Part shown: positions 15,181 through 55,782 of the stretch, piece by piece | Numbering within the stretch: the first letter of the stretch is position 1 | Layout: each line of letters begins with the position of its first letter | DNA from: Vicinamibacterales bacterium | GTDB taxonomy: Bacteria; Acidobacteriota; Vicinamibacteria; Vicinamibacterales; UBA2999 | NCBI GenBank assembly: GCA_050250875.1 | Contig: JBFWNV010000002.1 | Coordinates: 384,334 to 448,333, forward strand | DNA length: 64,000 nt | Direction of reading: 5' to 3' | Made by a program: the position numbers and the translations under genes | The notes under the pieces: model-generated | What the model was told of the DNA's origin: nothing | What the model saw: only the letters and a program-made list of their open reading frames with translations | Databases searched by the model: none

Positions 15181-15244
15181 GGCCTGACCACGAACCTTCC
15201 TGACGCTGTACCGAGAACCCGACGCTGAGTGACGAGTGCGAGCG

Positions 15245-29577: not shown

Positions 29578-30441
29578 CTACTCGGTGGCGGTGAACAGCG
29601 ATTCCGGATCGACGCGAGCCCCGAGCACCCGCACCGCCCAGTGCAGGTGCGGCCCGGTGACGCGGCCGGTGGCGCCGACCTTCCCCAGCAGGTCGCCGCG
29701 CGCGACCACGTCGCCCTCGGCGACATCGAACGCCGACAGGTGGGCCATGGTCGAGAGGACCCCGGCCCCGTGGTCGAGGATGACCGTGTTGCCCGAGTAG
29801 TAGAACGGCCGCGCGTAGACGACGCGGCCGGCCGCCGGCGCGACGATCGGCGTCCCCGTCCCGGCCGCGAAGTCAGCGCCGTTGTGCGGGCCGCGTGGCT
29901 GCCCGTTGAGGATGCTGCGCACGCCGAAGCCGCTCACCGCGACGCCTTCGACCGGCCGCGCGAACGCGCCGTCCCACTGCCGTGCCGTCGGCGGCGAGCG
30001 GAACAGCGCGTTCAGCAGCGCGGTCTCCTCGCGGATCCGCGGCAGCGCGCTGGCCGGCGGGGTGACGAAGCGGCGGGCGACCGTGAGGCGCCGCGTCCGC
30101 CACTGCTTCGGCGCGACCGTGAACGTGTGGACGGCGACGAGTTCGGACGCGCCGGGCCGAACGCCCACGACGCGGACGCTGCGCGGCCCGGGAGTCTCCT
30201 CGACGTCGATGCCGATGAGCGCGTGCCACCGGCCGTCGGTGCCGCGCTGAAACGGCACGGCGCGATCGCGCCAGACCGTGCGCACTGCCGTCACCGCCGC
30301 CGGCGCCGCGGCGGCCAGGGCCACCACCTCGCCCGGGGCCAGCGCGCGCGCCCGCTCGCTCACCGCGAGTGCATCCTGCGCGCGCAGCGACGCAGCCGCA
30401 CACACCAACAGCAGTCCGATCGCGCGCAGCACCGGCGCCAT
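29578..30441 (-). CDS. M23-family metallopeptidase (LytM-like), secreted
   Basis: ATG 30441. Signal peptide MAPVLRAIGLLLVCAAASLRAQ. M23 motifs HNGADFAAGTGTPIVAPAAG, NTVILDHGAGVLSTMAHL and TGPHLHWAV. Confidence 0.85.
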   Translation of the reverse strand: MAPVLRAIGLLLVCAAASLRAQDALAVSERARALAPGEVVALAAAAPAAVTAVRTVWRDRAVPFQRGTDGRWHALIGIDVEETPGPRSVRVVGVRPGASELVAVHTFTVAPKQWRTRRLTVARRFVTPPASALPRIREETALLNALFRSPPTARQWDGAFARPVEGVAVSGFGVRSILNGQPRGPHNGADFAAGTGTPIVAPAAGRVVYARPFYYSGNTVILDHGAGVLSTMAHLSAFDVAEGDVVARGDLLGKVGATGRVTGPHLHWAVRVLGARVDPESLFTATE

Positions 30442-30647
30442 GCAGTGATTGTAGAGCCGCCCGGTGCTCGAGCGGGTCGCGGCCGGCGCGGCATTGTCCT
30501 CAGCGGCGGACAGGGGGCGGACCGGCAACCGCGACCGCGCGCCAGTACGCCGAGACGGCGAGCGAATTCCCGCGGAAAACGGTCAGCCCGCAGGCTCACG
30601 CCTGCCGGCATGGTCCTTGAACCCTCGATGCCCAGGAGGACATGGTC

Positions 30648-31223
30648 ATGCGTGACATCACTGGATGGGCCGGTGGAGCCCTCGGCGTCGCGGCGCTGAT
30701 CGGCGCGTTCTACCTCGGCGGGCGCACCAGCGCGGCACCGGCGGGCTCGTCGTCGGCGTCACCGCCCGCCGCCACCGCTGTCGCGGCGATCGACGGCGTC
30801 GAGTTCGCGTGCGCGCCGGGACAGCGGGTGGTGATGCGCGACGCCACGCCGACCACGCCGCGCACGGCCGCCTGCGTCGGTGAGACGTCGAGCATGCCGG
30901 CGCCGGCGCTGACGACCGCGGCTCCGGCCTCCCTGCCGCTCCCGGCCGCCGTGCCGGCGGCACATCGCACGGTGGTCACCGAGCCGCTCGAGGTCTACCG
31001 CCCCCGCTCGGTGCCGGTGTCCTACGAGAGCGAGCGTGACGTGCGCCGGCCGGTCCGGACGAAGACGAAGAGCGCAGTGATCATCGGCAGTTCGGCGGCC
31101 ATCGGCGCCACCATCGGCGGCCTGGCCAAGGGCACCAAGGGCGCGATCGTCGGCGGCATCGTCGGCGGCGGTGCGGCCACGGTGTGGGACCAAGTGACGC
31201 GCCGGCAGGGTGAGCGCCGGTGA
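30648..31223 (+). CDS. Small membrane protein with C-terminal glycine-zipper
   Basis: N-terminal TM segment (WAGGALGVAALIGAFYLGG). C-terminal IIGSSAAIGATIGGLAKGTKGAIVGGIVGGGAATVW. AGGAGGA lies 8 nt upstream of ATG 30648; ATG 30642 is the alternative start. Confidence 0.6.
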   Translation: MRDITGWAGGALGVAALIGAFYLGGRTSAAPAGSSSASPPAATAVAAIDGVEFACAPGQRVVMRDATPTTPRTAACVGETSSMPAPALTTAAPASLPLPAAVPAAHRTVVTEPLEVYRPRSVPVSYESERDVRRPVRTKTKSAVIIGSSAAIGATIGGLAKGTKGAIVGGIVGGGAATVWDQVTRRQGERR

Positions 31224-31240
31224 ACTCTGGATGCGAGCGT

Positions 31241-31266
31241 GCCGGGCGGTTCCTCCCCGCCCGGGC
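31241..31266. terminator. Hairpin GCCGGGCGG-ttcctc-CCCGCCCGGGC between convergent genes
   Basis: Imperfect GC stem in the 45-nt gap between stops 31223 (+) and 31269 (-). No clear U-tract. Confidence 0.35.
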
Positions 31267-31268
31267 GT

Positions 31269-32426
31269 TCAGCGTGACGGCGCCCGGTACCCCTGCCGGG
31301 CGCGAATCCGCAGGTCCCGCCGCGGCGAGGTCAGGTCGATCTTCCGCCAGCGGCCGTCGGCGGCCCCGTTGGTCGGCGCGTAGCCAATCAGGTACTGGTG
31401 GGACAGTTCCGCCAGCACGTCGCCGAATCGCTCACCGAGCTGGCCGCTCCGCGCCGCCCGCAGCACCCGCCCGCCGCTGAGTGTCGCCAGCCCGTCCATG
31501 CCGTCGAGCAGCTGCTCGACCTCCTGCCCCCGCCCCAGCGCGACGAAGTAGAGCGCGACGTCGCTGGCCTCGACCGCGCTCTGCACCTGGGCGCGGGTCG
31601 CCCGGCTCGACTGGTCGTCGCCGTCGGTGAAGATCACCAGCGCGCGCCGGCCGGATCCGCGCGACAGGTCGGCGAAGCCGCGCATCATCACGTCGTAGAG
31701 GGCGGTGCCGCCGAACGGCTGGAGGTGCCCGAGCATCTCGAGGCGGCGCGCCACCGTGTCGGACGGCTGCCCGATGGGAAACATCTCGTCGTTGAAGGCG
31801 ACCAGCGAGACGGCGGCGCCCGGCGGCAGGCGGGTGACGAACTCGCCGACGGCCTGTTTGAGCGCCGGCAACGCCTCGCCCATGCTCTGGCTGACGTCGA
31901 GCGCGAGCACCAGTTCGAGCGGTGCCTCCTCGCTCGAGAAGTGCTGGATGGTCTGCGGCACGCCGTCCTCGACCAGGCGGAAGGCGTCGCGCGACAGGCC
32001 GCGGACGAAGCCGCCGTCGCGATCGGTCACGATCGCCGGCACCTGCACGACGCGCACCGCGGTGCGCTCGACGACGTCGAGCGCCGGCGTGCGGCGGGTG
32101 GCGACCAGGCGGGCGCCGTCGGCCAGGGTGGCGACGACACGGAGCTGGTGGGCCCGGACGATCGGCCCGGCGTCCCAGACACAGCGCGGCCGGCCGCCGG
32201 CCTCGACGCGGCAGACCTCGCGGCCGTCGGCGAAGAAGACGTACCCGGTGACGTCGCCGGTGCGCTCGGCGGGCTCGACGCGGGCTTCGATGGCGACGCG
32301 GTCGCTGACGTACTCCCCGTCGGCCGGTGTGAGGATGCTCAGCGAGGGTGCCTGCGCCGCCGGCGTGACCCCCGGCGTGGCGGCAAGGGCCAGACCCGAG
32401 ACGAACAGGCCGCTCCACCCGGTCAT
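31269..32426 (-). CDS. Secreted von Willebrand factor type A (VWA) domain protein, Acidobacterial TIGR03436-like
   Basis: ATG 32426 overlaps the upstream stop (ATGA). Signal peptide MTGWSGLFVSGLALAATPGVTPAAQA. MIDAS motif LALDVSQSM, then ...GGTALYD...VIFTDGDD. The C-terminal ...RARQGYRAPSR is typical of the family. Confidence 0.8.
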   Translation of the reverse strand: MTGWSGLFVSGLALAATPGVTPAAQAPSLSILTPADGEYVSDRVAIEARVEPAERTGDVTGYVFFADGREVCRVEAGGRPRCVWDAGPIVRAHQLRVVATLADGARLVATRRTPALDVVERTAVRVVQVPAIVTDRDGGFVRGLSRDAFRLVEDGVPQTIQHFSSEEAPLELVLALDVSQSMGEALPALKQAVGEFVTRLPPGAAVSLVAFNDEMFPIGQPSDTVARRLEMLGHLQPFGGTALYDVMMRGFADLSRGSGRRALVIFTDGDDQSSRATRAQVQSAVEASDVALYFVALGRGQEVEQLLDGMDGLATLSGGRVLRAARSGQLGERFGDVLAELSHQYLIGYAPTNGAADGRWRKIDLTSPRRDLRIRARQGYRAPSR

Positions 32427-35400
32427 CGCCGCACCGCATCCGCCGGCGTCAGGACGCCGATACCGGCCAGCGCCGACACGTAGTCTTCGAACCGTTCGCG
32501 GGTGAGCCGGCGCGCCTGGCGTCCCAGCCCCGCCCAGTCCTCCGACGAGGCGAGCTCGGCCGAGTCGAGCAGGTCCTGCACGGCGAACGCCAGCACGCCG
32601 GGGTACACCTCGGGCGGCAATCCCGCCTGGACGGTGAGCTCGGCGATGCGCAGCGGCAGATCGGCGGTCAGCGCTGCCAGCAGCCCCAGCGCGGGCCGTC
32701 CCGAGTACGGCTCCCACGGTTCCGAGCCCCGCCATTCCAGCCGCAACCGGCCATCGAGCGGCAGCGTCGGCGTGCCGAAGGCCGCTGGCAGCATCGCCGT
32801 CGGCTCGCCGATCCGCACCAGCTCCGCGAGGGTGAAGAGGTCGGCGATGCGGGCGGGTTCGTGGGCCGTCATCCACGCCAGCACCGCCCGCCGATCCGCG
32901 CTGAGCCGGCCGGCCGCGGCGAGGGCGTCGAGGGCGGCCGGATCGGTGCGGGCGCTCTGCACCCGCTCGCGGCCGCGCGTCAGCGCGGCGACGACGTCGC
33001 GGAGCTCCGATCCGGTGGCGTCGCGAGGACTGGCCAGCGCCGCCTGCAGCGCCAGCGCCTGCAGGTTCGCGGCGGTGAGGAGCGTCGGCCGCGGCGGCGC
33101 CGCTGAGGACAGCCGGCGCAGCGACAGCCGGGCCAGCGCGTGCTCGAGCCCGACGGCGGCACCGACCACCGCACCGGTGTCGTCGGCTTCCGCCGGGAGA
33201 CTCCACGGCGTCTCGCGCCTGGCGCTCTCGCTCACTTCGTGGACACCGAATCGGTGACGGAGCGCCAGATCGCCGGCGCGTGCCGCGGCCCCGTCGGGAT
33301 CGCCCAGGTGCGGCGTGTAGGCGACCGACAGCAGCAGGTGCATCGCCATCCACTCGACGACCTCGCCGAGCCGCTCGGCGGCCCGACCGACGCGGTCGCG
33401 ATCCCGCGGCCCGCGCACGCGCTCGAGCTCGCGGCGGGCCTGGGGCAGCACCCGCGTCACTTCCAGCGGCTCCGTGATCTCCTCGAGGGCCCGCGGCCGG
33501 CCCAGGGCCTTCTCCACCTCGGCGATGTCGCGCATCTCGTCGCGGGCCTTTTCGGGCGACGGCGTGCCGTGCGCCACCTGCCGCATCACCTGCAGCACGC
33601 GCGCCAGCATCTCGAGTGAGACTCCGCCCTGCGCCGCGCGCAGGCGCGACAGACGCTCGCCTTCCGCCGCCGTCCAGTCGACGACGTAGTCAGCCCCTTC
33701 CCAGGTGACCCGGCTGCGGGGGCCGGCGCGCGTTGCCATCGCGTCGGCGAGGGCGACGTCGAGGCCGTCGGTGACGCGCGGCAGCCGCGGCACGACGCGA
33801 TCGACGAGCCAGGCGGCGACCCCCGCGCCGAACCCGTCGGGGCCGAGCGGCACGCTCATCAGCGCCGAGAGCAACGCGGCGGCCGCCTCCTGCCCGAGCA
33901 CTCCGGCGCGCAGCAGCCGATCGATCAGCGCGACGGCGCCCTGCAACCCGCCGAGGGCCACCGCGCGACGGTTACGATCCTCGAGCCGCTGCACGGCCGA
34001 CGCCTGGTGCACGGCCTGCGTCGCCAGACCGGGCGACAACAGACCGCTCCGCTCCAGCACCAGCAGCAGCGCCGGAAACTCCGCGAGGCCGCGCGCGGCG
34101 AGCAGCGCACCGGCCAGATCGCCCGCCGCAACCGCCGGCATCGCCCGCGGCAGGACCAGTACCTGCCGGAAGCGGATTGGCCGCTGGTCGCGCGCGTCGT
34201 TGCAGACACGCTCGACGAGCCACGCCGCGTCGACCAGCCCGTCGTCGTCGAGATCGCGCAGCGCCCGCGCCGGGTCGTCCGGGATGCCGGCCTCGAACGC
34301 GCGCTCCCAGAAGCGGCGCTGCTGCGGGCCGGCGAGCCCGTTGCCGGCCGCCGCGGCCGAGGTGGGCAGGCCCCGCAGCAGCAGCCACGGATCGGCCGGA
34401 TAGCGCTTGAGCGGCGCGATCGCTGGCGTCCAGTCGGCGTCGGCCCGGGCGACCGCCTCGTAGAGGGCCCGGAACCGGTCGAGGCGGCGGCCGGCATCGC
34501 GCATCCAGGCCCCGGTGGCGAAGCGGCGCTGGGGCTCGGGCAGCGCCTGGACGAGGTCGAAGAACACCGCCAGGCGTCCGCCGTCGCGGGTGAAGAGCCG
34601 GCGCACGAACGCCGCCGGAGCGGCGACCGGTTCATCGACCAGCGCGTCCCACAGCGCGGCCTCCTGTGGATCGCCGGCCACCTGCACGCGGCCGCTGCGC
34701 ACTACCACCTGGGCGCCGTAGGCGGCAAACAGCGGCGCCGCCTCGCGGTGCAACGCGCGCACGAGATCCGGGGACGACTCGAGGAACCGACGCGTCGAGG
34801 CGTCGAGGGACATCGCGCCCTGCCAGAGCAGCAGCGCGTTCGGATCGCGGAACAGCTCGGCGAACAGCGCGCGCGCCGGGATCTCGCGCTCGAACACCAC
34901 CCGCGTCCACGTGGCCGGCGACAGCGCCAGCGGCACGTCCACCGCCGGCACCTCCAGCGTCACGCTCTCGCCGGAGTTGAGGCGGGCGGCGACCGCCTCG
35001 ACGTCGAGGCCGAGGGCCTTGAGCGCGGTGTGCAGATCGCGGCTGCGCCGGCCGTCGTCGAGTTCCACCGAGTACTGGCCGCGCCGCTCGCGCAGCCGCC
35101 CGCCCAGCGCTTCGACGGCCTCGCGGAGACGGTCGCGCGACTGGCGCGTCTTCGCCGTGCCGAGCGACAGGACGCCGCCGGGGCCAGCGAGGCGCGCTGC
35201 CTGCTCCACCCGGACCGCCAGATCGAGCTGCGCCTGCACACGGGCCAGCGTCGCCTCGTCGGTCCGCACCGACGCCGCGGCATCGTAGCGACGCTGGATC
35301 AGCAGGCGGAGCACCGACGCCCGCTCCACCGTCGCCGGAATCCCGAGCTCGGCGAAGGCCCAGGCGCCGGCCGGCACCGCCAGGGTCGACAGCTCACCCG

Positions 35401-35518
35401 GCGGCGCGGACTGCGCCGTCGCGGGCCGGACGGCCACCACGCCGACGAGGGCGAGCGCGACGAATACAGGGGCCGCGGGACGTCGGCGGACCGACGGGCG
35501 AGCTGGCGCGGGGAACAT
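32423..35518 (-). CDS. Large (1031 aa) secreted protein of unknown function
   Basis: ATG 35518. N-terminus MFPAPARPSVRRRPAAPVFVALALVGVVAVRPATAQS is signal-like. Composition is consistent and non-shadow across 3.1 kb. I recognise no domain or catalytic motif. Translationally coupled to the VWA gene. Confidence 0.7.
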   Translation of the reverse strand: MFPAPARPSVRRRPAAPVFVALALVGVVAVRPATAQSAPPGELSTLAVPAGAWAFAELGIPATVERASVLRLLIQRRYDAAASVRTDEATLARVQAQLDLAVRVEQAARLAGPGGVLSLGTAKTRQSRDRLREAVEALGGRLRERRGQYSVELDDGRRSRDLHTALKALGLDVEAVAARLNSGESVTLEVPAVDVPLALSPATWTRVVFEREIPARALFAELFRDPNALLLWQGAMSLDASTRRFLESSPDLVRALHREAAPLFAAYGAQVVVRSGRVQVAGDPQEAALWDALVDEPVAAPAAFVRRLFTRDGGRLAVFFDLVQALPEPQRRFATGAWMRDAGRRLDRFRALYEAVARADADWTPAIAPLKRYPADPWLLLRGLPTSAAAAGNGLAGPQQRRFWERAFEAGIPDDPARALRDLDDDGLVDAAWLVERVCNDARDQRPIRFRQVLVLPRAMPAVAAGDLAGALLAARGLAEFPALLLVLERSGLLSPGLATQAVHQASAVQRLEDRNRRAVALGGLQGAVALIDRLLRAGVLGQEAAAALLSALMSVPLGPDGFGAGVAAWLVDRVVPRLPRVTDGLDVALADAMATRAGPRSRVTWEGADYVVDWTAAEGERLSRLRAAQGGVSLEMLARVLQVMRQVAHGTPSPEKARDEMRDIAEVEKALGRPRALEEITEPLEVTRVLPQARRELERVRGPRDRDRVGRAAERLGEVVEWMAMHLLLSVAYTPHLGDPDGAAARAGDLALRHRFGVHEVSESARRETPWSLPAEADDTGAVVGAAVGLEHALARLSLRRLSSAAPPRPTLLTAANLQALALQAALASPRDATGSELRDVVAALTRGRERVQSARTDPAALDALAAAGRLSADRRAVLAWMTAHEPARIADLFTLAELVRIGEPTAMLPAAFGTPTLPLDGRLRLEWRGSEPWEPYSGRPALGLLAALTADLPLRIAELTVQAGLPPEVYPGVLAFAVQDLLDSAELASSEDWAGLGRQARRLTRERFEDYVSALAGIGVLTPADAVRR

Positions 35519-35576
35519 CTCCGTCCGGGTAGGTGAGCGTACACCGGACCGGAGGAGCGCTCAACGCGCCGCCGGG

Positions 35577-36578
35577 TCAGAACGCCGCCTGATAACAGAA
35601 CTCGCTGTCGGGCGGACTGAGCAGGCGCGGCTGCCCGGCGCCGGCCGAGGCCCCGACGAGCCCCTTGCATGGGATCGAGACTTCCACGGCCGGGTCGGCG
35701 TCGTACTCCTCGGTCATCGCCAGCGGCCGGTACTTGACCGGGTCGCCCGACGCCGTCTGGAAGAAATCGAAGTAGTGGTCGCCGTGCCGGAGGATGTGCG
35801 GCTGCGGATTGGTCGGCGGGTAGGCGGGCAGCGCCACCACCCACGCGGGCGTACCCGCCGCCGGGGTCACCACGAATCTGCCGGCGCCCCCCTGCAGCCG
35901 CAGGCCGAGCGGCGCGGCATGCTCGAACGCGCCAATGTCGGTGAGCCGGCGCGGACCGCCAATCGGCCCGGTCGGCAGCCAGAACGTGTAGCCGCGATCG
36001 CCGCCGGCGGCGCCCGTCGGCGGCGCCTCGCGCAGCCGGCCGTCGAACAACGTCACGACTCTCCGGTGGGCGGCGTGGAACCGGTAGTCGACGCCGGGGT
36101 TGGCCATCGCCGCGACGTCCTGCATCCGCGGCCACAGGTCGGGCGTGGCCACGACAGCCTCGCCGGCCGATCCGACGGCGAGATCCCACGGCGCCAGGCA
36201 AAGCGCCTTGAACAGCGTCTGGAGCGTCGCGGCCGCGGCGAAGTAGGGATGGATGGGACCGAGCGTCGTGGCGGCGACGTCGGAGAAGTACGCGGCGCCG
36301 GCGCCGAGATCGCTCCCGGCGTGGACGAGCAGAATGGGCTCGTGGCCCGGAATGCCGTAGCCGACCAGCGCCTGGCGCTGCTTGCGGTAGCCGAAGGCGC
36401 CGACCAGCCGCAACTCACGGTCGCTGCCCCGATCGTCGCTGGATCGGACCGGCGAGGCCGTCCCGACCTGGGCGGCACTGGCCCGGAGCTCGACTGGCGG
36501 GCCGCTGGCGGCAGCCGCGGCCACCCCGCTGGCGGCCAGGGTCGCGAACTGTCGCCTCGTCAGCATCGGCTGCGCCAT
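35577..36578 (-). CDS. Tat-exported protein of unknown function (333 aa)
   Basis: ATG 36578 with GAGGAGG about 8 nt upstream. Twin-arginine signal MAQPMLTRRQFATLAASGVAAAAASG. No recognisable domain. Ends ...FCYQAAF. Confidence 0.7.
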   Translation of the reverse strand: MAQPMLTRRQFATLAASGVAAAAASGPPVELRASAAQVGTASPVRSSDDRGSDRELRLVGAFGYRKQRQALVGYGIPGHEPILLVHAGSDLGAGAAYFSDVAATTLGPIHPYFAAAATLQTLFKALCLAPWDLAVGSAGEAVVATPDLWPRMQDVAAMANPGVDYRFHAAHRRVVTLFDGRLREAPPTGAAGGDRGYTFWLPTGPIGGPRRLTDIGAFEHAAPLGLRLQGGAGRFVVTPAAGTPAWVVALPAYPPTNPQPHILRHGDHYFDFFQTASGDPVKYRPLAMTEEYDADPAVEVSIPCKGLVGASAGAGQPRLLSPPDSEFCYQAAF

Positions 36579-36619
36579 CGATTCCGCCTCCTCGCTCGAC
36601 GGATCGACGGACCGCGCCG

Positions 36620-39600
36620 TCAGATTCCGGACCCGACGACCACGGTGCGGGCCCAGACCCTCGAGGGCAGGCCGCGGGCGATGCCGTCGAGCTGCGCGGT
36701 GCGCAGGGCCTCGTGGACGGGCCGGCCGCGGGCCAGCTGGCGGTGCACGCTCACGGAAAAGGCCGCCGCAGCCTCGTCGGGCACGTCGGTCAGGGTGGCG
36801 ATGACGCTGCCGGCTCCCGCCGCGAGCACGGCGCGCGCCAGCGACAGCGGCCCCTCGCCGCGGCGGGTCACGCCGCCGGCCGTGCCGCAGGCGGCGAGGA
36901 ACACCACGCGGGCTGCGTGGAGGTCGGCGCCCGACAGGTCGGTGGCGTACAGCCGTCCGGAATCGCCACCACTGGCGGTCAGCTGCAGGTGCGAACGCAT
37001 GGGGTGCTCTTCGTTGGCGATCCCGTGCGCGGCGAAGTGGATGACTTCCGCGCCGTCGAGCGCCTGCAGCACCGCCGCCGGCGATGCCGCCGCGGCTGTC
37101 AGCACCACGCCGTCGCGGTAGAGGCCGCGCACCGCCGCGGCTTCACGGCCGGCCGCCGGAAGCGCCGGCGTTCCGGCGCCCGCATCGACGACGCCGACGG
37201 CCACCGCCCGCGCCGGCACGCCGCGGTCCGTGCGGGGGTGCAGCGCCTGATCCACGGTCGGCGCGAAGACCACGCCGTGGTCCTGCACGAGTCGCCGGCC
37301 GGTCGCGGTGTCGACGAGTGAGGCGAACGGCACGTCGTAGTACGGCACGTCGGGCACGATCCACAGGGTGTCCAGTCCGCGCAGATCGGCCTGCACGGGC
37401 CGCACGAGGGCGTCGAACAGGGCCGCGGCGGCCGCGGCGTCGACGTCGCCGTCCAGGGTCACCTGGCGGGCCAGTGCCCGGGCCCGGCCGCTGGGCATCG
37501 GCACCCACACATGGCGAGCGCCGCGGTGGCCGACGACGAGCAGCGACAGCCGCGTGTCGAACTGGGAGATGAGCAGGAGGCCGTCGGCCGGGCCGAGGGC
37601 CCGTTCGGCCTCGGTCAGCGAGCGCCGCCCGGCACGCGACCGTCTGGCCTCGGCGAGCGTGCGGCCGCGGCTGTCCTGGAAGGCCTGGAATGCGGCGTCG
37701 AGATCGCCGCGAGTCAGCGCCGCCTCGATGCGGTCGGCGAGCAACCCCCATGAGGCGTCGAAGTACGAGATGCGATCGTCGCTGCCCAGCGCCAGGCGTT
37801 CGCGCTCGAACGCGTCGAGTCCGGCCTCGAGCGAACTGGCCGCGGTGGCGGCGTCGCCCAGCCGGCTGGCCGCGCGGCTGTGCGCGAGCCGCAGCTGCGC
37901 CAGGCGCAGCGTCTCGCCGCCCGCTTCGACGATTCGCAGGGCCTGCTCCGCCGCGGCGCGGGCGCGGCGCCAGTCGCCGTCCGGCGCTTCGGCTTCAGCC
38001 GACAGCAACTGCAGTTCGATGCGGGTCCGGAACGCCGCGTCCGTCACGCCGACCAGCGCCGCACGCGCCGCCGCCAGGGCCGCCGGAATCAGATCCGGGC
38101 GCCCGCTCGCCGCCAGCACGCGCACCTGTGTCGCCAGCGCCTCCACCTCTGCCGCGGGATGCAGCAGGCGGGCATTGGCGACGAGCGCCGCGGTCACGCT
38201 GCCGGCGGCGTGCGGCCAGCCGGCGGCGAGGCAGGCGTTGGCCATGCCGATCAGCCACAGATGTCGGGACCGCGGATCGGCCGCGCCTCCGAAACGCCCG
38301 GCGGCGACCCAGTACCCCCACGAGCGATCGACGTCGCCGACGTAGCGCGAGAACGTCCCGAGCATCGCGTGGGCCGTCATCAGCGTCGGCGCGCCGGCCC
38401 CGTCCTCGGCGGCCCGCAGGTGCGCGCGGTAATGGCGATCGACGTCGCCGAGGCGGCCGTCGCCGAACGCGAGCATGCCGAGGTGGGCCTGCGCGGCGGC
38501 GACCACGTCGGCATCGCCCGGCGGGCCATCGACGATCGCCGCCAGGTGCCGGAGGCCGGCCGCGGTACCGCCGGCACGCAGGTGCGCGCGGGCCGCGAGG
38601 AGGCGGGCCGCCTGGGCGAGCGGACTCCCGATCGCGCGCACGGCGATCACCGCGGCCTCCGCGGCGTCGAGGCTCTCCGCGTAGCGCTCCTGACGCTGCA
38701 GGGCCGACGCGGCGGCGAACGCCTCGTGGCCGAGGGCGAAGCGGCGGCACGCCGCGACCGAGCCGACACACGCCGTCCGCGCCGCCGCCGCCACGGCGGT
38801 CACCACGTCGGCGGGGCCGTTCGGATCGCCCGCAATCGCGGCCAGCGCCTCCGGCAGCACCACCGTCCCGCCGCGTGCCTCCCGCGCCCAGGCCGCCAGC
38901 ACGTCGTCCTCGACGTGGCGCCGGACGGCCCACCGCGGCGCGGCGCGGATCCAGGCGGCCGCCGCCATGGACGTGGGGCGCCTGGGCACACCGTTCTGCC
39001 ACGCCGGCAGCGCCGAGGACTGGGTCAGGGCGTCGAGCCGGCGGCGGGCGTCGCCGGCCCACGCCGAGGCGGCGTCGATCTCGAGGTAGCGCCGCCACGC
39101 CGCGGCGGCCTGGGGGGCCAGGTGCAGCGCGTCGAGCGCCAGCGCGCGGTTGTACAACGCCTCCGGGAGCTCGGGCGCCAGCGCCAGGGCCCGATCGGCC
39201 AGCTCCAAGGCCCGTGGCCAGTCTTCGGGCCGCTCCTGCCGGCCGGCCCGGGCGGCGTACGCCGCCGACAGGTCGCTGAGCAGCGACGGCGTCGCCGCGC
39301 CGGCGGCATTGGCCCGCTCGAGCGTCTCGAGCCCCTCGCCGAGGTCGCCGATCAGCACGTAGGCGACGCCGAGCGCGTGCAGGGTCTCGGGCGAGCCCTC
39401 CGCCGCCGCTCGGCGCTGCAGTTCGCCGGCCACCGCCAGCAGCGCCAGGTTCTCGCCGGCGAGTTCGCCGGATCCGCGCATGACCTGGCGCAGCGGGCCG
39501 TACTGGAAGCCGCCGGTCAACCGCGGTTCGATATAGCGGACCGCGCCCGCGGCCTCGACCAGCCGCGCCACGATGGCGTCGGGCTCGGCCGGCCCGGCGC

Positions 39601-39919
39601 GCCGCCCCTGGGCGAGCCAGACCATCACCGCGATGGCCGCCGCGGCGGCCAGCACGCCACCGACGGCCGCGGCGATGCGCGGACGGGGGGGCGCCACCGC
39701 GGCCACGCCATCCCCGGCGTTGGCCGGCGCCGCGGCGGCGGCGGCCTCGGCCGGCATGGTGTCGACCGCGTGCATCGTGTCAATCAGCCACGCCTGGAGT
39801 TCTGGGTCCGCGGCGATCTCGACATCGACCTTCGCGCGTTCCTCCGGGGGGAGTCGGCCATCGACGTAGGCGGCGAGTGTCTCGGCATCGAGACGGCGGG
39901 CCCCGGGTCGTTCAGTCAT
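36620..39919 (-). CDS. Membrane anti-sigma factor fused to TPR repeats and a C-terminal CHAT (caspase-like) protease domain
   Basis: N-terminal anti-sigma signature LAAYVDGRLPPEERAKVDVEIAADPELQAWL, without the HxxxCxxC cysteines. Single TM segment (IAAAVGGVLAAAAAIAVMVWLA, about 39611-39676). TPR-like helical repeats follow. CHAT region has His (VIHFAAHG, codon 37025-37027) and Cys (VVFLAACGTAGG, codon 36887-36889). The start is ATG 39919 or GTG 39925, and both overlap the sigma gene stop. Confidence 0.8.
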   Translation of the reverse strand: MTERPGARRLDAETLAAYVDGRLPPEERAKVDVEIAADPELQAWLIDTMHAVDTMPAEAAAAAAPANAGDGVAAVAPPRPRIAAAVGGVLAAAAAIAVMVWLAQGRRAGPAEPDAIVARLVEAAGAVRYIEPRLTGGFQYGPLRQVMRGSGELAGENLALLAVAGELQRRAAAEGSPETLHALGVAYVLIGDLGEGLETLERANAAGAATPSLLSDLSAAYAARAGRQERPEDWPRALELADRALALAPELPEALYNRALALDALHLAPQAAAAWRRYLEIDAASAWAGDARRRLDALTQSSALPAWQNGVPRRPTSMAAAAWIRAAPRWAVRRHVEDDVLAAWAREARGGTVVLPEALAAIAGDPNGPADVVTAVAAAARTACVGSVAACRRFALGHEAFAAASALQRQERYAESLDAAEAAVIAVRAIGSPLAQAARLLAARAHLRAGGTAAGLRHLAAIVDGPPGDADVVAAAQAHLGMLAFGDGRLGDVDRHYRAHLRAAEDGAGAPTLMTAHAMLGTFSRYVGDVDRSWGYWVAAGRFGGAADPRSRHLWLIGMANACLAAGWPHAAGSVTAALVANARLLHPAAEVEALATQVRVLAASGRPDLIPAALAAARAALVGVTDAAFRTRIELQLLSAEAEAPDGDWRRARAAAEQALRIVEAGGETLRLAQLRLAHSRAASRLGDAATAASSLEAGLDAFERERLALGSDDRISYFDASWGLLADRIEAALTRGDLDAAFQAFQDSRGRTLAEARRSRAGRRSLTEAERALGPADGLLLISQFDTRLSLLVVGHRGARHVWVPMPSGRARALARQVTLDGDVDAAAAAALFDALVRPVQADLRGLDTLWIVPDVPYYDVPFASLVDTATGRRLVQDHGVVFAPTVDQALHPRTDRGVPARAVAVGVVDAGAGTPALPAAGREAAAVRGLYRDGVVLTAAAASPAAVLQALDGAEVIHFAAHGIANEEHPMRSHLQLTASGGDSGRLYATDLSGADLHAARVVFLAACGTAGGVTRRGEGPLSLARAVLAAGAGSVIATLTDVPDEAAAAFSVSVHRQLARGRPVHEALRTAQLDGIARGLPSRVWARTVVVGSGI

Positions 39920-40742
39920 GGTCACCCCCGGTGCTCTGCTGGTGGGACGGACCGGTGCCCCCGATTTCTATTTCGAGTCCCTGGGCCGATCGGCCAGCCA
40001 GCCGCGTCATGACCTCGGCGACCGCCGAGGCGGCGATTCCCTGGCCCTCGAGCGCGCGCCGCAGGTCGGTCACGATGCGATCGAATCGCCGGTACAACGC
40101 CTTCTGATCGGCGCCGGTCATCGCGGCGATGCGGGCCACGGTGTGTCCCCCCCAATACCGCAGCTGCAGCTGCACCTGGTCGCCCGGGGTCAGCGCGCGC
40201 ATCGCGTCGCCCAGGGCGGCGGCCACCGCCGCGGCGGCGCGGTCCGCTTCGTGGTCGTCGACGGCGTCGCTGGCCCGGCCGGGGCCGGGCACCGTGGCGA
40301 GGTGGTGCTCGTCGACCCGGCGGCGGGCCGGCCGCCGCGGCAGCCGCCGCCAGGTGGCGTCGCACTCTTCGAGCGACGCGACGCCGCGCGCCGCCAGCGT
40401 CTGCGCTGCCTCGCCGAAGGTCAGCCGATCGCGCCCGACCATGCGTTCGAGCTCGATCGCGACCGGACCGAGACGGCGGGCCTCGGCGGTCGGCCGCCAC
40501 TTGCCCCACTCGGCGATCCGCCAGTCGAGATAGAGACGCTGGACGACCGTGATCAGGAAGGTGCGGAGCGAACTGCGCCCGGCGAACTTGCGGAGAATCG
40601 CCTGGTCGCGATCGAGCAGGCGCAGCCGTGCCCACGAACGGAATTCGTCGGCGGCGTCGGGAGCGAGCCGGTGCATCCGGCTGGCCTGGGCCAGAGCGGC
40701 TTCGATCGTCGCGGCGTGAGCGGTATAGAGATCGGGCGGCAC
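39912..40742 (-). CDS. ECF-like sigma-70 family sigma factor, atypically long (276 aa)
   Basis: GTG 40742. Region 2-like FRSWARLRLLDRDQAILRKFAGRSSLRTFLITVVQRLYLDWRIAEWGKW. Region 4-like LTPGDQVQLQLRYWGGHTVARIAAMTGADQKALYRRFDRIVTDLRRAL. About 85 aa lie between them and about 45 aa follow region 4. Confidence 0.8.
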   Translation of the reverse strand: MPPDLYTAHAATIEAALAQASRMHRLAPDAADEFRSWARLRLLDRDQAILRKFAGRSSLRTFLITVVQRLYLDWRIAEWGKWRPTAEARRLGPVAIELERMVGRDRLTFGEAAQTLAARGVASLEECDATWRRLPRRPARRRVDEHHLATVPGPGRASDAVDDHEADRAAAAVAAALGDAMRALTPGDQVQLQLRYWGGHTVARIAAMTGADQKALYRRFDRIVTDLRRALEGQGIAASAVAEVMTRLAGRSAQGLEIEIGGTGPSHQQSTGGDHD

Positions 40743-40759
40743 CGGCGTCCGGACCCGAG

Positions 40760-40789
40760 ATTATCGGGGGACGCTCTGCCCGAACTCAA
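40760..40789 (-). promoter_or_regulatory. Sigma70-type promoter candidate for the sigma operon: TTGAGT, N18, GATAAT (minus strand)
   Basis: The minus strand reads cTTGAGTtcgggcagagcgtcccccGATAATctcgggtccggacgccgGTG. The -10 ends 17 nt from the start codon. Confidence 0.35.
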
Positions 40790-40951
40790 GAAGCCTCGCG
40801 GCGCCGGCGGCGACCGGCGCCGCCGAGTTGACCTCGACCGGCCACCCCGGCACGCGGGCTCTAGGGAAGCCTGGACGCCGGGCCGATCTCCCCCCGGACA
40901 TCGGAGCCGGACGAGGTCGAGTGGGTGGACGGACCGGTCCGCGAAGTTCCG

Positions 40952-43429
40952 CTACTCCGCCCGAAGTGCCACGACCGGGTCGACCCGCGTCGCCCGTTGC
41001 GCCGGCAGATATGCCGCCGCCGCCGCGACACCGAGCATCAACAGCGCGACCGCGACGAAGCTGAGCGGGTCGGTCGGCGTGACGTCGTAGAGCAGGCTGC
41101 CGATGAGCCGGGTCACGCCGAGCGCGCCAGCCACGCCGAGGGCGACGCCGATCGACGCCAGCCGCAGCCCGTGGCCGATCATCATCCGGCGCACGTCGCC
41201 GGCCCCGGCCCCGAGGGCCATGCGGACGCCGAACTCCTGCGTCCGCTGCGACACGCTGAAGGACAGCACGCCGTAGACGCCGACCACGGCCAGCAGCAGC
41301 GCCAGCGCGCCGAAAGTGCCGAACATCTGGCCGAACAACGCATACTGCCAGAAGCCCTTGCGGCGCAGCTCGTCCATCGACGTCGCCGCGAACACGGGCA
41401 GGATCGGGTCGGACGCCCGAATCGCCGCGCGGATCGCCGGCGTGACGGCCACGGCGTTCCCGCCGGCACGCACCAGGAGGCCGGTGTTGGGTGTCTCCTG
41501 ATACGGATACGGGACGAACGCCGCTGGCGTCACCTCGCGTTCGCCGACCTCCTCGACCATCACGTCGGGCACGACGCCGATCACCGTGAACCACCCGGCG
41601 TCCGGATCGTCGAGCAGGCGGAAGCGCCGCCCGATCGGATCGATGGCGCCAAGTTCGCGGGCGCCGGCGAGCCGGCCGGCGGCCGGCGGCGGCGCGGCAG
41701 CGCCCTCGGGCGGCGTGAAGTGGCGTCGCGCCATGCTGACGTTGATTACCGCGACCCCGGAGCGGGTCCGGCTCTCGGCCTCGGTGAAAGTCCGGCCGCG
41801 GATCGCGGCGGCGCCGAGGGCCTGCAGGTAGTGGCTGGTGACGCCGGCGAAGAACAGCTGCGGCTCGCGGCCGACCTCGGCGGCGCCCCCTTCGACCTCC
41901 ACGCGGCTCACGTCCCCGCCGCCGTCGAGCGGAATCAGGTTCGAGGCGCCCGCCGCCGACACGCCCGGCAGGGCCTCGATGCGCGCGACGACGTCGTCGA
42001 TGCGCCGGGCCATCGCCCCCGGCTCCTGATAGCCGTCGCCCGGCATGAACAGCCGCACCGTGGTCAGCACCGACGGATCGAAGCCGACGTCGGCGCGCTG
42101 CAGATTGAGGAAGCTGCGGGTGAAGAGCGCGGCGCCGACCAGCAGCACGATCGACAGCGCCACCTCCATGACCACCAGGATGTGCCGGGCGCGGTTGCGC
42201 GCGCCGGCATCGCCGGTGCGGCCGCCCTCGCGCAGCGCGGCGACCAGATTGCCCCTGACGGCGTGCACGGCCGGGGTCAGCCCGAACACGACGCCGGTCA
42301 GCAGGCTCACCGCGATGGTGTAGCCCAGCGTGCGCGGATCGAGCGTGAAGTCGATGAGGTACGGCACGTCGTCGGCCGGCACGCGGGCGCGCAGGGCGCC
42401 GATGCCGACCCACGCCAGAACCAGGCCGAGCGGTGCCGACGCCGCGCCGAGCAGCACGCTCTCGGTCAGCAGCTGACGGACGATCCGGCCGCGCCCGGCG
42501 CCGATCGCCGCCCGCACCGACATCTCGCGGGCGCGGCTGGTCGCCCGGGCCAGCAGCAGGTTGGCGACGTTGGCGCAGGCGATGAGCAGCACCAGCGTGA
42601 CCGCCCCCAGCGCGGTGAGCGTGACCAGCCGGACGTCGGCCGGCACGTAGTACTCGGTGAGCGGGTCGACGCGGATCCCCCAGCCGTCGTCCTCGGCGTA
42701 CGTGCCCGCCAGCCGCGTCGCGATGGCCGACAGCTCATCGCGCGCCTGATCGGTGCTGCGCCCGTCGGCGAGCCGCGCGAACACCTCGAGCGTGCGGGTC
42801 TGCCGCGGCAGGTCGGCGACGAGCGGCTCGAGTGGCACCCAGGCGACCTGCAGGAACGGGAACTTCACTCGCGGCGGCAGCACGCCGACGACGGTGTAGG
42901 GGCGGGCGTTGATGGTGACGGCGCGGCCGACGATGGCCGGATCGGCGTTGTAGCGGCGCCGCCACAGCTCGTCGCTCAGGATGACGACGTCGGCGGCGCC
43001 GACCCGATCGTCGGCGGCGGTGAAATCGCGCCCCAGGGCCGGCACGATGCCGAGCATCGAGAACAGGCGCCAGCCGACCGCCGCGCCGAGGACGCGCTCC
43101 GGCTCGTCGCCGTCGGAGAAGGTGAGGCTGCGCCCGTCCACCCCGGCGACGGCGGCGATCGACCGGCTCCCCGCCTCGTAGTCGCGCAGGTCGGGCACCG
43201 ACAGCCCGCCGCGGCGCACCCCGCTCTGCTGCTGGGTGGACCACAGCGTGACGAGCTGTCCGGGGTCGCGGAACGGCAGCGGATTGAGCAGCGTGCCGCT
43301 CACGACGCTGAAGATCGTGGCGTTGGTGCCGATCCCCAGCGCCAGGCAGGCGATGGCCAGGACGGTGGCGAGCGGCGCCTTGCGCAGCGCGCGCAGCGCC
43401 AGCCTGATGTCCTGGCGGAGGCCGTCCAT
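40952..43429 (-). CDS. ADOP-family duplicated ABC-type permease (2x MacB-like periplasmic domain + FtsX)
   Basis: MDGLRQDIRLALRALRKAPLATVLAIACLALGIGTNATIFSVV... is the canonical ADOP N-terminus. 825 aa with two FtsX-like 4-TM modules. No adjacent ATPase gene. Confidence 0.85.
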   Translation of the reverse strand: MDGLRQDIRLALRALRKAPLATVLAIACLALGIGTNATIFSVVSGTLLNPLPFRDPGQLVTLWSTQQQSGVRRGGLSVPDLRDYEAGSRSIAAVAGVDGRSLTFSDGDEPERVLGAAVGWRLFSMLGIVPALGRDFTAADDRVGAADVVILSDELWRRRYNADPAIVGRAVTINARPYTVVGVLPPRVKFPFLQVAWVPLEPLVADLPRQTRTLEVFARLADGRSTDQARDELSAIATRLAGTYAEDDGWGIRVDPLTEYYVPADVRLVTLTALGAVTLVLLIACANVANLLLARATSRAREMSVRAAIGAGRGRIVRQLLTESVLLGAASAPLGLVLAWVGIGALRARVPADDVPYLIDFTLDPRTLGYTIAVSLLTGVVFGLTPAVHAVRGNLVAALREGGRTGDAGARNRARHILVVMEVALSIVLLVGAALFTRSFLNLQRADVGFDPSVLTTVRLFMPGDGYQEPGAMARRIDDVVARIEALPGVSAAGASNLIPLDGGGDVSRVEVEGGAAEVGREPQLFFAGVTSHYLQALGAAAIRGRTFTEAESRTRSGVAVINVSMARRHFTPPEGAAAPPPAAGRLAGARELGAIDPIGRRFRLLDDPDAGWFTVIGVVPDVMVEEVGEREVTPAAFVPYPYQETPNTGLLVRAGGNAVAVTPAIRAAIRASDPILPVFAATSMDELRRKGFWQYALFGQMFGTFGALALLLAVVGVYGVLSFSVSQRTQEFGVRMALGAGAGDVRRMMIGHGLRLASIGVALGVAGALGVTRLIGSLLYDVTPTDPLSFVAVALLMLGVAAAAAYLPAQRATRVDPVVALRAE

Positions 43430-53974: not shown

Positions 53975-54085
53975 GGGGGTCAGACCCCTTTCAAGCCTGG
54001 GCTGGAAAAGACCGCAGAGTTCAAGGCCGGCCCAGAAAGGGGTCTGACCCCCATTCACGGCCGGACTGGAATGGGGTCTGACCCC
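53975..54085. repeat. REP-like element: three copies of GGGGTC-N-GACCCC, two of which form a perfect 18-bp inverted repeat (53975-53992 / 54035-54052); third copy at 54073-54085
   Basis: GGGGGTCAGACCCCTTTC pairs with GAAAGGGGTCTGACCCCC across a 42-nt loop. The third copy supplies the last 11 codons and the region before the stop of the upstream gene. Confidence 0.75.
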
Positions 54086-55782
54086 AGGCGTTCGCGCGCG
54101 GCCTCGGCCAGATCGGCGAGGCGGGCTCTCGTCGCCATCTTCTCGGCCAGCTCGAACTGCGTGCGGGCTTCGGCGGCGTGACCGCCCCGGGCCAGCGCGT
54201 CGCCGAACTTCAGCACCACGGCAACGACGGCGGCCGGTTCCGGCGGCGCCGTGCCCGACCGGGCCACCACTCGCTCCAGCCACGCGCGGTAGCCGCGTGC
54301 GGCGTCATCGGCGCGGCCCTGCTCGTCGAACAGCTCGGCCAGATACAGCTGCACGTGCGTCAGGCCGGGGTCGTGCGCCATCGCATCGGTCCAGTGGCGC
54401 TCGGCATCGGCCTGCCGCCCCTGCTGCCGCGCCAGCACACCGGCATTGACCAGCGTGTCGACGTCGTGCGGATCGCGGGCCAGGTTCGCCTCGAAGTGCG
54501 CGCGCAGCCCGGCCTCGTCGCCGCGCTCGGTCAAGGCGCGGACCAGACGGGCCTGCAGCGCAGCGTCATAAGGATTGACGCGAGCCGCCGCCGCCAGCGC
54601 CGCGGGGTCGGTGTCGCGCTGGGCCAGCTGATAGCGCCACTGGTCGAGCCCGGCCAGGGCCACCAGCGCCACGGCCGCCCCGGCCACGACGGGAATCCGC
54701 CAGCGCGGCACCGGCGCGCGCCTCGGCGCGACGCCGCCTGCCACGGCGTCGGCCGTGAGCGTGCGACCGACCCGGGGATCGCGCAGCTTCCACACCACGC
54801 CGTCGATCATGAAGTGGTGCAGGTTGACGACCGCGGTCACGATAAGCACGCTGGCCGTGAAGTCCACACGCCCGACGTAGCTGGCCAGCCACGGCACGGG
54901 CAGGAACAGCGCCAGGCCGCCGAGCCCCACCGCGGTCCAGTAGGCGCGGCTGCGCCACGCCGCGCCCTCATCGCGCCGGGCGAAGTACTGCGTGACCCAC
55001 AGATACTGCACCGAGTGCATCACGGCCAAGATGCCCGAGCTGTAGCGCGTCTGCGGCGTGGCGACGCCCGCCGCCCACGACAGGGCGATCGGCACGACGA
55101 ACCACAGCGCCTGCGTGACGAAGAGCAGCAGCGGCGCCGCGGCGCGGATGCCGGCGCCGGCGACGACCGGCCAGAGCGCCGGCAGCCCGAGGGCGAGAAA
55201 CATGGCCGCCGCCGTCCAGCCGACGGCGCGTGTCATCGTGGTCGGCAGGCCCAGCGACAGCACCGTCGGATCGGCCGACGGGCCCTCGTTGAACGCGGCC
55301 AGCAGCATGACGAACGAGGCGATGAAGGCCAGCTTCAGCCGCCGCGCCCTGGCCGGCGTGATCACGAGCCCGGCCCGGCGCACGAACATCATCAGCAGCC
55401 CGTAGTTCTGGCCGCTGTAGTGCCAGGGGCTCCACATCACGTAGGCGGTGAAGAGCACCGGCAGCAGCCGCAGCTCGACGTGGGCGACCGCGCCCAGGGC
55501 GACCAGCGCGGCCGTCGCGTGCACGGTGTAGAGCCGATGGGCGCCGCGGTCGGCGGCGCCGTAGGCGCGATACACCGTCGCCATGTAGTGCGGGTAGTTG
55601 GCGACGAGCGCCAGCGCGTAGAAGGCACCGGCCCACTCCCGGGCGCTGTCGCCCGTCAGGGCGTAGGACCACGCCAGGAGGGGCAGCGACCAGCCGCCGC
55701 AGCCGACGACGAGATCCACCCAGGGGTGGGCGATCCAGTAGCGGGAGGGTGTCGACGGGTGGGCGGGCGGCGGGGTCACCAC
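54055..55782 (-). CDS. Polytopic membrane protein with conserved-looking histidine motifs fused to a C-terminal TPR domain
   Basis: About 9 hydrophobic segments carrying NYPHYMAT, SPWHYSGQNYG, MHSVQYLW and NLHHFMIDG. The C-terminal about 190 aa are TPR-like (NPYDAALQARLVRALTERGD..., DAERHWTDAMAHDPG...). Confidence 0.7.
   Translation of the reverse strand: MVTPPPAHPSTPSRYWIAHPWVDLVVGCGGWSLPLLAWSYALTGDSAREWAGAFYALALVANYPHYMATVYRAYGAADRGAHRLYTVHATAALVALGAVAHVELRLLPVLFTAYVMWSPWHYSGQNYGLLMMFVRRAGLVITPARARRLKLAFIASFVMLLAAFNEGPSADPTVLSLGLPTTMTRAVGWTAAAMFLALGLPALWPVVAGAGIRAAAPLLLFVTQALWFVVPIALSWAAGVATPQTRYSSGILAVMHSVQYLWVTQYFARRDEGAAWRSRAYWTAVGLGGLALFLPVPWLASYVGRVDFTASVLIVTAVVNLHHFMIDGVVWKLRDPRVGRTLTADAVAGGVAPRRAPVPRWRIPVVAGAAVALVALAGLDQWRYQLAQRDTDPAALAAAARVNPYDAALQARLVRALTERGDEAGLRAHFEANLARDPHDVDTLVNAGVLARQQGRQADAERHWTDAMAHDPGLTHVQLYLAELFDEQGRADDAARGYRAWLERVVARSGTAPPEPAAVVAVVLKFGDALARGGHAAEARTQFELAEKMATRARLADLAEAARERLGSDPIPVRP

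Follow-up and report, generated by a model that had tools for sequence, protein, structure and literature searches.

The window analyzed here is a stretch of 64,000 nucleotides from a Vicinamibacterales bacterium (contig JBFWNV010000002.1, positions 384,334 to 448,333), and the subject of this account is a reverse-strand gene, together with the genes on either side. We assign the product of this gene, with high confidence as to both identity and topology, as an anti-sigma factor that spans the membrane and has, as its large outer portion, a caspase-like module consisting of tetratricopeptide repeats (TPR) followed by a CHAT domain. Directly upstream lies a gene for a sigma factor of the extracytoplasmic function (ECF) type and directly downstream a gene for a protein with a twin-arginine translocation (Tat) signal, denoted gene X below (Table 1). 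All the elements that an initial annotation, made from the letters alone, had listed in the protein were recovered at the same coordinates.

Table 1. Features of the anti-sigma/TPR-CHAT locus in the window; residue numbers of the TPR-CHAT anti-sigma protein, here and in the text, count from GTG 39925.
Feature	Coordinates	Strand	Remarks
Secreted vWA-domain protein	31269..32426	(-)	VWA_2 4.3e-9, VWA 5.8e-8; ATG 32426 overlaps the stop of the 1031-aa gene (ATGA)
Secreted helical protein, 1031 aa	32423..35518	(-)	58 nt downstream of gene X; signal-peptide-like N-terminus
Gene X, Tat-signal protein, 333 aa	35577..36578	(-)	third gene of the cassette, 41 nt after the anti-sigma gene
Anti-sigma/TPR-CHAT gene	36620..39925	(-)	1101 aa from GTG 39925; probable ATG start 39919
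CHAT caspase-like domain	36623..37597	(-)	aa 777-1101; 14 beta strands
Cys1013 codon, putative catalytic	36887..36889	(-)	in VVFLAACGTAGG; aligns with DdvA C907
His967 codon, putative catalytic	37025..37027	(-)	in VIHFAAHG; aligns with DdvA H862
Helical scaffold and TPR superhelix, extracytoplasmic (predicted)	37598..39469	(-)	aa 153-776; ~35 helices in the AF2 model, mostly pLDDT >85 (DSSP)
Flexible juxtamembrane linker with conserved motif R130-YIEPRLTGGFQYGPLRQVMRG-151	39470..39610	(-)	aa 106-152, ~47 aa
Single transmembrane helix	39611..39676	(-)	aa 84-105; AF2 helix 83-105
Class I anti-sigma domain, cytoplasmic (predicted)	39761..39898	(-)	aa 10-55; AF2 helices 14-21, 27-39, 41-55; without zinc ligands
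ECF-type sigma factor, 276 aa	39912..40742	(-)	~60-70 aa insertion between sigma2 and sigma4
Sigma-70-like promoter candidate TTGAGT-N18-GATAAT	40760..40789	(-)	just upstream of the sigma gene

The sigma/anti-sigma gene pair and the architecture of the anti-sigma protein

The GC content at third codon positions (GC3) of the anti-sigma gene is 0.91, like that of the neighbouring genes. The ATG at 39919, which coincides with the end coordinate given in the initial annotation, yields a protein of 1099 aa, has a G-run 5 nt upstream and is where a 98%-identical database protein begins; it appears more likely to be the start codon than the GTG at 39925. An AlphaFold2 (AF2) model of the protein, computed with 28 relatives as input (mean pLDDT 80.9, pTM 0.77), comprises three short N-terminal helices followed by a transmembrane (TM) helix (residues 83-105), a low-confidence linker, a long series of helices and a 14-stranded alpha/beta domain (residues 781-1098).

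The stop codon of the sigma factor gene (TGA 39912-39914) overlaps the anti-sigma ATG 39919 (ATGACTGA), with an overlap of 8 nt. The TIGR02937 profile (sigma70-ECF) matches the sigma factor over the full model with E=3.4e-9 and 36.6 bits, just below the cutoff of 42.9, and the sigma4 region matches SigL in PDB. TIGR02937 matches all 21 sigma homologues from related loci (best 1.3e-18). The protein in the window is ~80 residues longer than a minimal ECF sigma factor and contains a conserved insertion after region 2 (aa ~75-140; WGKWRPSAEARRLGPVAIELERM...), within which W79, G80 and W82 are invariant in WGKWRPSAEARRLGP among the 21 homologues. In ~25 of the 33 related genome loci, the gene immediately preceding the anti-sigma gene encodes a sigma homologue, and this also holds for both loci that were retrieved by exact protein look-up. 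Taken together, it is probable that the two genes form a two-gene ECF sigma/transmembrane anti-sigma switch of the DdvS-DdvA type, here in an Acidobacteriota genome.

A profile of the first ~170 residues, which include AYVDGRLPPEERAKVD (aa 19-34), matches DdvA (1.7e-6), RslA from Mycobacterium tuberculosis (2.3e-6) and the nuclear magnetic resonance structure DdvA-Nt (3e-4), as well as ChrR and RsiW, and NCBIfam anti-sigmaE matches the protein itself (7e-7). By homology, these matches show the N-terminal three-helix domain to be of the kind that holds a co-translated sigma factor, as the initial annotation had proposed. The same annotation had pointed to the missing zinc-binding HxxxCxxC, and the alignment agrees: about half of the relatives keep C...HxxxCxxC and score as Pfam zf-HC2 (PF13490), whereas the protein in the window scores 13.7 bits against the zf-HC2 cutoff of 22.2, that is, below it. 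In its subclade, L13, E36, D40 and L43 occupy the columns of the C, H, C and C ligands, so that all four zinc ligands are gone and E36-x3-D40-x2-L43 stands where relatives have HxxxCxxC. Thus, the N-terminus is a zinc-free descendant of the domain typical of zinc-binding anti-sigma factors (ZAS); it is homologous to zf-HC2 without being a zinc-binding member.

The TM helix corresponds to the sole strong hydrophobic peak of the protein (Kyte-Doolittle 2.47 at aa 84-102), with all other peaks at or below 1.65 and inside confidently folded domains, in agreement with the single helix that had initially been read from the translation. Across the family, Lys and Arg residues number 103 in the 15 residues before the helix vs 59 in the 15 after it, which fits an N-in orientation. 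In eight paralogs (P0025, P0026, L009, L013, L026, L028, L032 and L033), the anti-sigma domain is absent, there is no sigma gene upstream, and the proteins start with a lipobox, a Sec-type signal or a short anchor, followed by the same scaffold-TPR-CHAT module with the IExRLTGGF motif. Because a lipobox or a Sec signal directly precedes the module in these paralogs, the module is one that is exported. The placement of the TPR and CHAT parts outside the cytoplasm, which the initial annotation had deduced from the single helix, is supported by these observations and also by the whole-length fold match to the cryo-electron microscopy structure of the membrane-spanning DdvA described below. The TPR-like helical repeats were likewise borne out by the model, in which residues 153-776 are helical by DSSP, Pfam TPR matches in this region being weak.

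The C-terminal domain is matched by Pfam CHAT (PF12770) with E=4.8e-51 (174.3 bits vs a cutoff of 24) at aa 832-1098, over profile positions 3-288 of 289. When a profile of 20 CHAT domains of the family was compared with chain 8rot_B of DdvA (E=1.3e-20), the H967 column fell on H862 and the C1013 column on C907 (HMMER alignment), the two residues named as the catalytic dyad of DdvA (PMC11506125); hence the dyad reported in the initial annotation is intact and sits where its DdvA counterpart does. According to DSSP of the model, H967 is at strands 8/9 and C1013 is between strands 12 and 13, which agrees with the published description of DdvA. Both dyad columns are covered by 26 of the 27 aligned relatives, among which P0007 alone is without both residues; a truncated relative, P0029, is without the His region. 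The dyad is kept in the paralogs that have no anti-sigma domain as well. The initial reading as a whole, namely dyad, single TM helix and anti-sigma N-terminus, thus held in each part when tested.

Relationship to DdvA and distribution of the family

The best-characterized protein of comparable design is DdvA from Myxococcus xanthus, a protein of 991 aa in which a cytoplasmic zinc-binding domain is joined through one TM helix and a flexible linker to a scaffold, nine TPR and a CHAT domain (PMC11506125). A search with the whole-family profile against PDB gave 8rot_B as the best non-designed match (8.9e-32), and a profile of 327 N-terminal positions aligned residues 7-287 of the same DdvA chain in one stretch (E=1.2e-17). 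Foldseek with the AF2 model also returned DdvA first (8rw5/8rot_A; E=2e-20, TM-score 0.56 by query and 0.68 by target, 980-1007 columns, 20% identity), followed by Csx29 (target TM-score 0.25-0.44) and separase. The family profile was needed for the sequence-based match, given that a single-sequence phmmer search against PDB retrieved designed TPR proteins only and did not find DdvA. On the basis of the profile and fold searches, the protein in the window is a distant Acidobacteriota homologue of DdvA over its whole length.

The DdvA-DdvS system (8rot, 8rw5, 8rlz) and the locus in the window share the order of parts (anti-sigma domain, TM helix, linker, scaffold, TPR and a 14-strand CHAT domain with an equivalent dyad), the spacing of the membrane-proximal region (TM 71-92 and linker 95-143, ~50 aa, in DdvA; TM 84-105 and linker 106-152 here), a sigma gene directly upstream and a gene of unknown function after the anti-sigma gene. 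There are also clear differences. The subclade of the window is without the CHCC zinc ligands, whereas zinc binding matters for the DdvA-DdvS interaction (PMC11506125); the sigma factor, unlike DdvS, has 276 aa and a conserved sigma2-sigma4 insertion; the candidate promoter is sigma-70-like, in contrast to the DdvS promoter GTAA-N16-CGT (PMC6061681); the gene directly downstream encodes a Tat-exported protein; and the host belongs to the Acidobacteriota, not the Myxococcota, and carries no adjacent defence genes. Only a subset of the DdvA-like pairs are found near defence genes (PMC11506125).

Among other systems, Csx29 (craspase, type III-E CRISPR) and separase likewise carry a CHAT domain with a His/Cys dyad behind a TPR superhelix and are allosterically switched, but they are cytoplasmic, monomeric and soluble, cut partners (Csx30 and cohesin, respectively) and are without an anti-sigma domain and a TM helix. 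The ZAS proteins (RslA, ChrR, RsiW, RsrA) contain a homologous three-helix domain, and sister members of the present family carry HxxxCxxC, whereas the protein in the window has, outside the cytoplasm, a protease module of ~1000 aa in place of a small sensor domain. The FoxR/FecR type and the RsgI type of Firmicutes provide the periplasmic site-1 cut from the anti-sigma factor itself, as is proposed here, but their cleavage is non-enzymatic and constitutive and leaves the products associated (PMC11506125), unlike the enzymatic, signal-driven cut considered below. In the ECF classification (PMC7826278), the main text is silent on CHAT; a review ties CHAT-context genes to the group ECF54, which has no anti-sigma factor.

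The initial annotation implied that both the architecture and the idea of autoproteolysis were new. This does not hold, because both have been published for DdvA: the extracytoplasmic location of its C-terminal part was reported, and autoproteolysis already raised, in 2018 (PMC6061681), and the structure followed in 2024 (PMC11506125).

According to a scan of one genome per species, the family is represented in at least 33 species-level genome loci, nearly all of them from Acidobacteriota (Vicinamibacterales, Thermoanaerobaculia, Blastocatellia, Chloracidobacterium and unclassified members of the phylum), and the overall identity among the aligned relatives is 25-50%. Two members are located on short contigs of metagenome-assembled genomes labelled Chloroflexi (L007, 3.8 kb) and Bifidobacteriaceae (L012, 6.1 kb); these are probably binning errors because all other loci are from Acidobacteriota. 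DdvA-like proteins have been reported in Myxococcota and one Comamonas only (PMC11506125); with 20% identity, the Acidobacteriota relatives would escape a BLAST search to which a coverage filter is applied.

The region of the protein under the strongest constraint is the juxtamembrane linker. The most conserved 20-residue window of the family falls within aa 121-151 of the linker, with a mean top-residue frequency of 0.78, compared to 0.62 for the anti-sigma domain and 0.43 for CHAT, and in the close clade E133, R135, L136, T137, G138, G139, F140, G143, P144, R146, R150 and G151 are invariant. The AF2 model has no confident structure there (pLDDT <50 for residues 128-156). The first half of the linker motif IExRLTGGF, in the context RYIEPRLT, aligns with residues 109-116 of DdvA (RTLEARVT), inside the flexible linker of that protein (Q95-S143). 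The DdvA segment nearest to the dyad, V129-P140, would map ~20 residues further on, at ~aa 150-161 in the present protein, still in the conserved stretch. We infer that the linker motif is the best candidate for a docking or cleavage site.

Promoter, downstream genes and genomic neighborhood

The promoter candidate upstream of the sigma gene, TTGAGT-N18-GATAAT, is the only site of its kind in the region 30400-41100 (10.7 kb) and likewise the single match in the entire window, where chance would give 0. Four of the related loci (L011, L017, L021, L024) have kept the arrangement CTTGAGTT...CATAATCC ahead of their sigma genes. This suggests that the operon may be transcribed from a promoter of the housekeeping type and would not be autoregulated. 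Taken by itself, CTTGAGTT shows no enrichment in the window (15 occurrences vs 10.9 expected), and the full promoter pattern occurs once. No regulon could be defined within the window.

Gene X has a strong Shine-Dalgarno sequence (GGAGG) 7 nt before its ATG, and its product carries a twin-arginine signal (RRQF) and seven invariant residues (H79, H110, C127, D214, H265, C304 and C328). The protein has no Pfam match, and its AF2 model (pLDDT 76, beta-rich) gave no PDB fold match at E <0.5. An exhaustive search of 1.8 billion representative proteins identified 8 relatives, compared to one close relative in a word-based search; judging by these sequences, the family is apparently tiny and fast-evolving. 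Most of the related loci contain a gene of 230-345 aa after the anti-sigma gene, but these downstream genes are very divergent: homology to gene X is clear for that of L001 only (6.7e-21) and suggestive for another downstream cluster (hhalign 66%, E=5.6e-5), and several of the encoded proteins appear to be without signal peptides. The gene X product may bind the periplasmic module as a ligand, inhibit it or serve as its substrate; as a periplasmic partner of TPR-CHAT, it may contain a metal or disulfide bonds. As a separate observation, residues 244-295 of the gene X product match 13 repeats in P0060, a protein of 4717 aa, and may be a repeat unit that is also found in giant proteins. Three of the paralogs without an anti-sigma domain (L026, L028 and L032) have in common a conserved downstream gene of their own, of ~230 aa.

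For the 1031-aa protein encoded downstream of gene X, no Pfam, NCBIfam or PADLOC match was detected; we infer from the spacing that its gene belongs to the operon. A tblastn search of the proteins X, 1031-aa, vWA, M23 and methyltransferase from the window against 36 related loci detected X in L001 only. Accordingly, the long downstream genes are not part of the conserved cassette, and the 1031-aa and vWA genes are, as far as this comparison goes, predicted to be specific to the organism of the window.

PADLOC, applied to eight proteins of the operon and its neighbours, found only generic CHAT similarity to BovA, and the reading of the locus as a defence island was dropped for that reason. Neither PADLOC nor domain searches of the neighbours detected a CBASS, CRISPR or other defence gene near the cassette. 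The rest of the window encodes TonB receptors, peptidases, an ADOP-type permease, transporters, DUF1592/DUF1552 proteins, vWA proteins and metabolic enzymes. One of the TonB-dependent receptors (12709-15348 (-)) has an N-terminal STN domain and adjoins a PepSY_TM protein (15245-16459 (-)). STN domains usually signal to an anti-sigma/sigma pair of the FecR/FecI type; no such pair was seen beside this receptor. The open reading frame at 54055-55782 (-), with 575 aa and gene-like codon bias (GC3 0.93), has no Pfam match.

Release of the sigma factor: a tentative model and its alternatives

In the 2024 structure, DdvA is a dimer in which each CHAT site is opposite the linker of the other protomer; the protein is degraded in an RseP-dependent manner once TPR-CHAT is removed, and CHAT self-cleavage in trans has been proposed, not observed, as the site-1 step before RseP (PMC11506125). 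By analogy with DdvA, we propose a tentative model for the Acidobacteriota proteins. At rest, the bulky TPR-CHAT body would sterically keep a site-2 protease of the RseP type off the TM helix. Once a protein signal in the periplasm is bound by the TPR and scaffold, the CHAT dyad would be switched on, and CHAT would then cut the juxtamembrane linker of the partner protomer, the candidate site being in or just after IE-x-R-LTGGF...R...RG. RseP and cytoplasmic proteases would remove the remainder, and the sigma factor would be freed. The proposal that CHAT itself is the site-1 protease, acting by self-cleavage, is a tentative one, to which we give somewhat less than an even chance.

Several observations weigh against parts of this model. 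With respect to topology, Lys and Arg residues flank the TM helix of the protein in the window in equal numbers (2:2), which is by itself uninformative on orientation. With respect to catalysis, one relative (P0007, locus L001, 8001-11288) reads SAETRP and DVLDG where the His and Cys motifs would be, yet it is of full length and retains the sigma gene, an anti-sigma domain of the zinc type and a homologue of gene X; it follows that some members of the family can do without catalysis. In DdvA, repression persists in the H862A and C907A mutants, phage infection was not accompanied by any observed cleavage, and the active site is in an incomplete, resting state, without the three-helix motif of other CHAT proteases and with the dyad 11.3 A apart (PMC11506125). 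The linker motif is kept also in the paralogs that have no anti-sigma role, and so may serve the protease module in general, for example in release from a membrane anchor. Finally, no RseP gene, signal or regulon was identified in this analysis.

The alternative that fares best retains the DdvA-like anti-sigma factor but not CHAT as the site-1 protease: TPR-CHAT would be a sensor and steric shield that cuts another periplasmic protein, such as the gene X product or an incoming foreign protein, and regulated intramembrane proteolysis would be started by a separate protease or by displacement. The small exported gene after the anti-sigma gene in most loci fits this possibility, and so do separase and craspase, which cut partners rather than themselves, and the dyad mutants of DdvA, which behave like the wild type when there is no signal (PMC11506125). 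The exported TPR-CHAT paralogs without an anti-sigma domain also have a downstream small gene, which suggests that the protease module has a job independent of sigma release. We nevertheless find it somewhat doubtful, considering that conservation in the family peaks in the juxtamembrane linker, that the DdvA linker faces the active site of the partner protomer (PMC11506125), and that gene X is poorly conserved (the hhalign probability of 66% given above), with several of the downstream proteins seemingly without signal peptides.

It is improbable that CHAT is a catalytically silent pseudo-protease or scaffold in which the dyad is kept for structure or binding and signalling proceeds by conformational change or partner binding. 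The whole cassette is kept in L001, where both dyad residues are lost, and the geometry of the DdvA site described above would be compatible with such a role; against this, His and Cys are kept, at 25-50% identity, in the relatives covering the region other than P0007, as well as in the paralogs without an anti-sigma domain, and it is difficult to see why purifying selection would preserve precisely these two residues if there were no catalysis. A misreading of topology or role, such that the hydrophobic stretch is not a TM helix and TPR-CHAT is cytoplasmic, or the N-terminus does not bind the neighbouring sigma factor, would be consistent with the 2:2 flanks, the zf-HC2 score below its cutoff and the sigma gene just under that of TIGR02937, but is highly implausible in view of the whole-length fold match to a membrane-spanning protein, the N-in charge bias of the family, the lipoprotein paralogs, the profile matches of the N-terminus to four solved anti-sigma domains, and the overlap and synteny with the sigma gene.

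A more specific form of the self-cleavage model can be stated, in which the motif [IL]-E-x-R-[LV]-T-G-G-F...R...R-G, its first half common to DdvA, would be a built-in CHAT substrate and the gene X product a periplasmic trigger or a securin-like inhibitor. This conjunction is speculative and, taken as a whole, unlikely. If true, TPR-CHAT anti-sigma factors of two phyla would carry a site-1 protease and its cleavage site in one chain, and the motif would provide a concrete, mutable target for the DdvA autoproteolysis hypothesis.

The TPR-CHAT design of anti-sigma factors has one studied example, DdvA, and was reported as nearly confined to Myxococcota and tied to phage defence. The present analysis shows that it is not a new kind of system, but is common in a second, very abundant soil phylum, where it occurs without a defence island; that it tolerates loss of the zinc site and, in P0007/L001, of the catalytic dyad; and that its strongest constraint is on the short linker, where the DdvA model places the predicted cut. 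These observations provide a comparative handle on the question of self-cleavage, in the form of specific residues and a candidate periplasmic partner gene. Should the built-in substrate model prove correct, the TPR-CHAT anti-sigma factor would be a device of general use in envelope signalling and not a speciality of myxobacterial defence.

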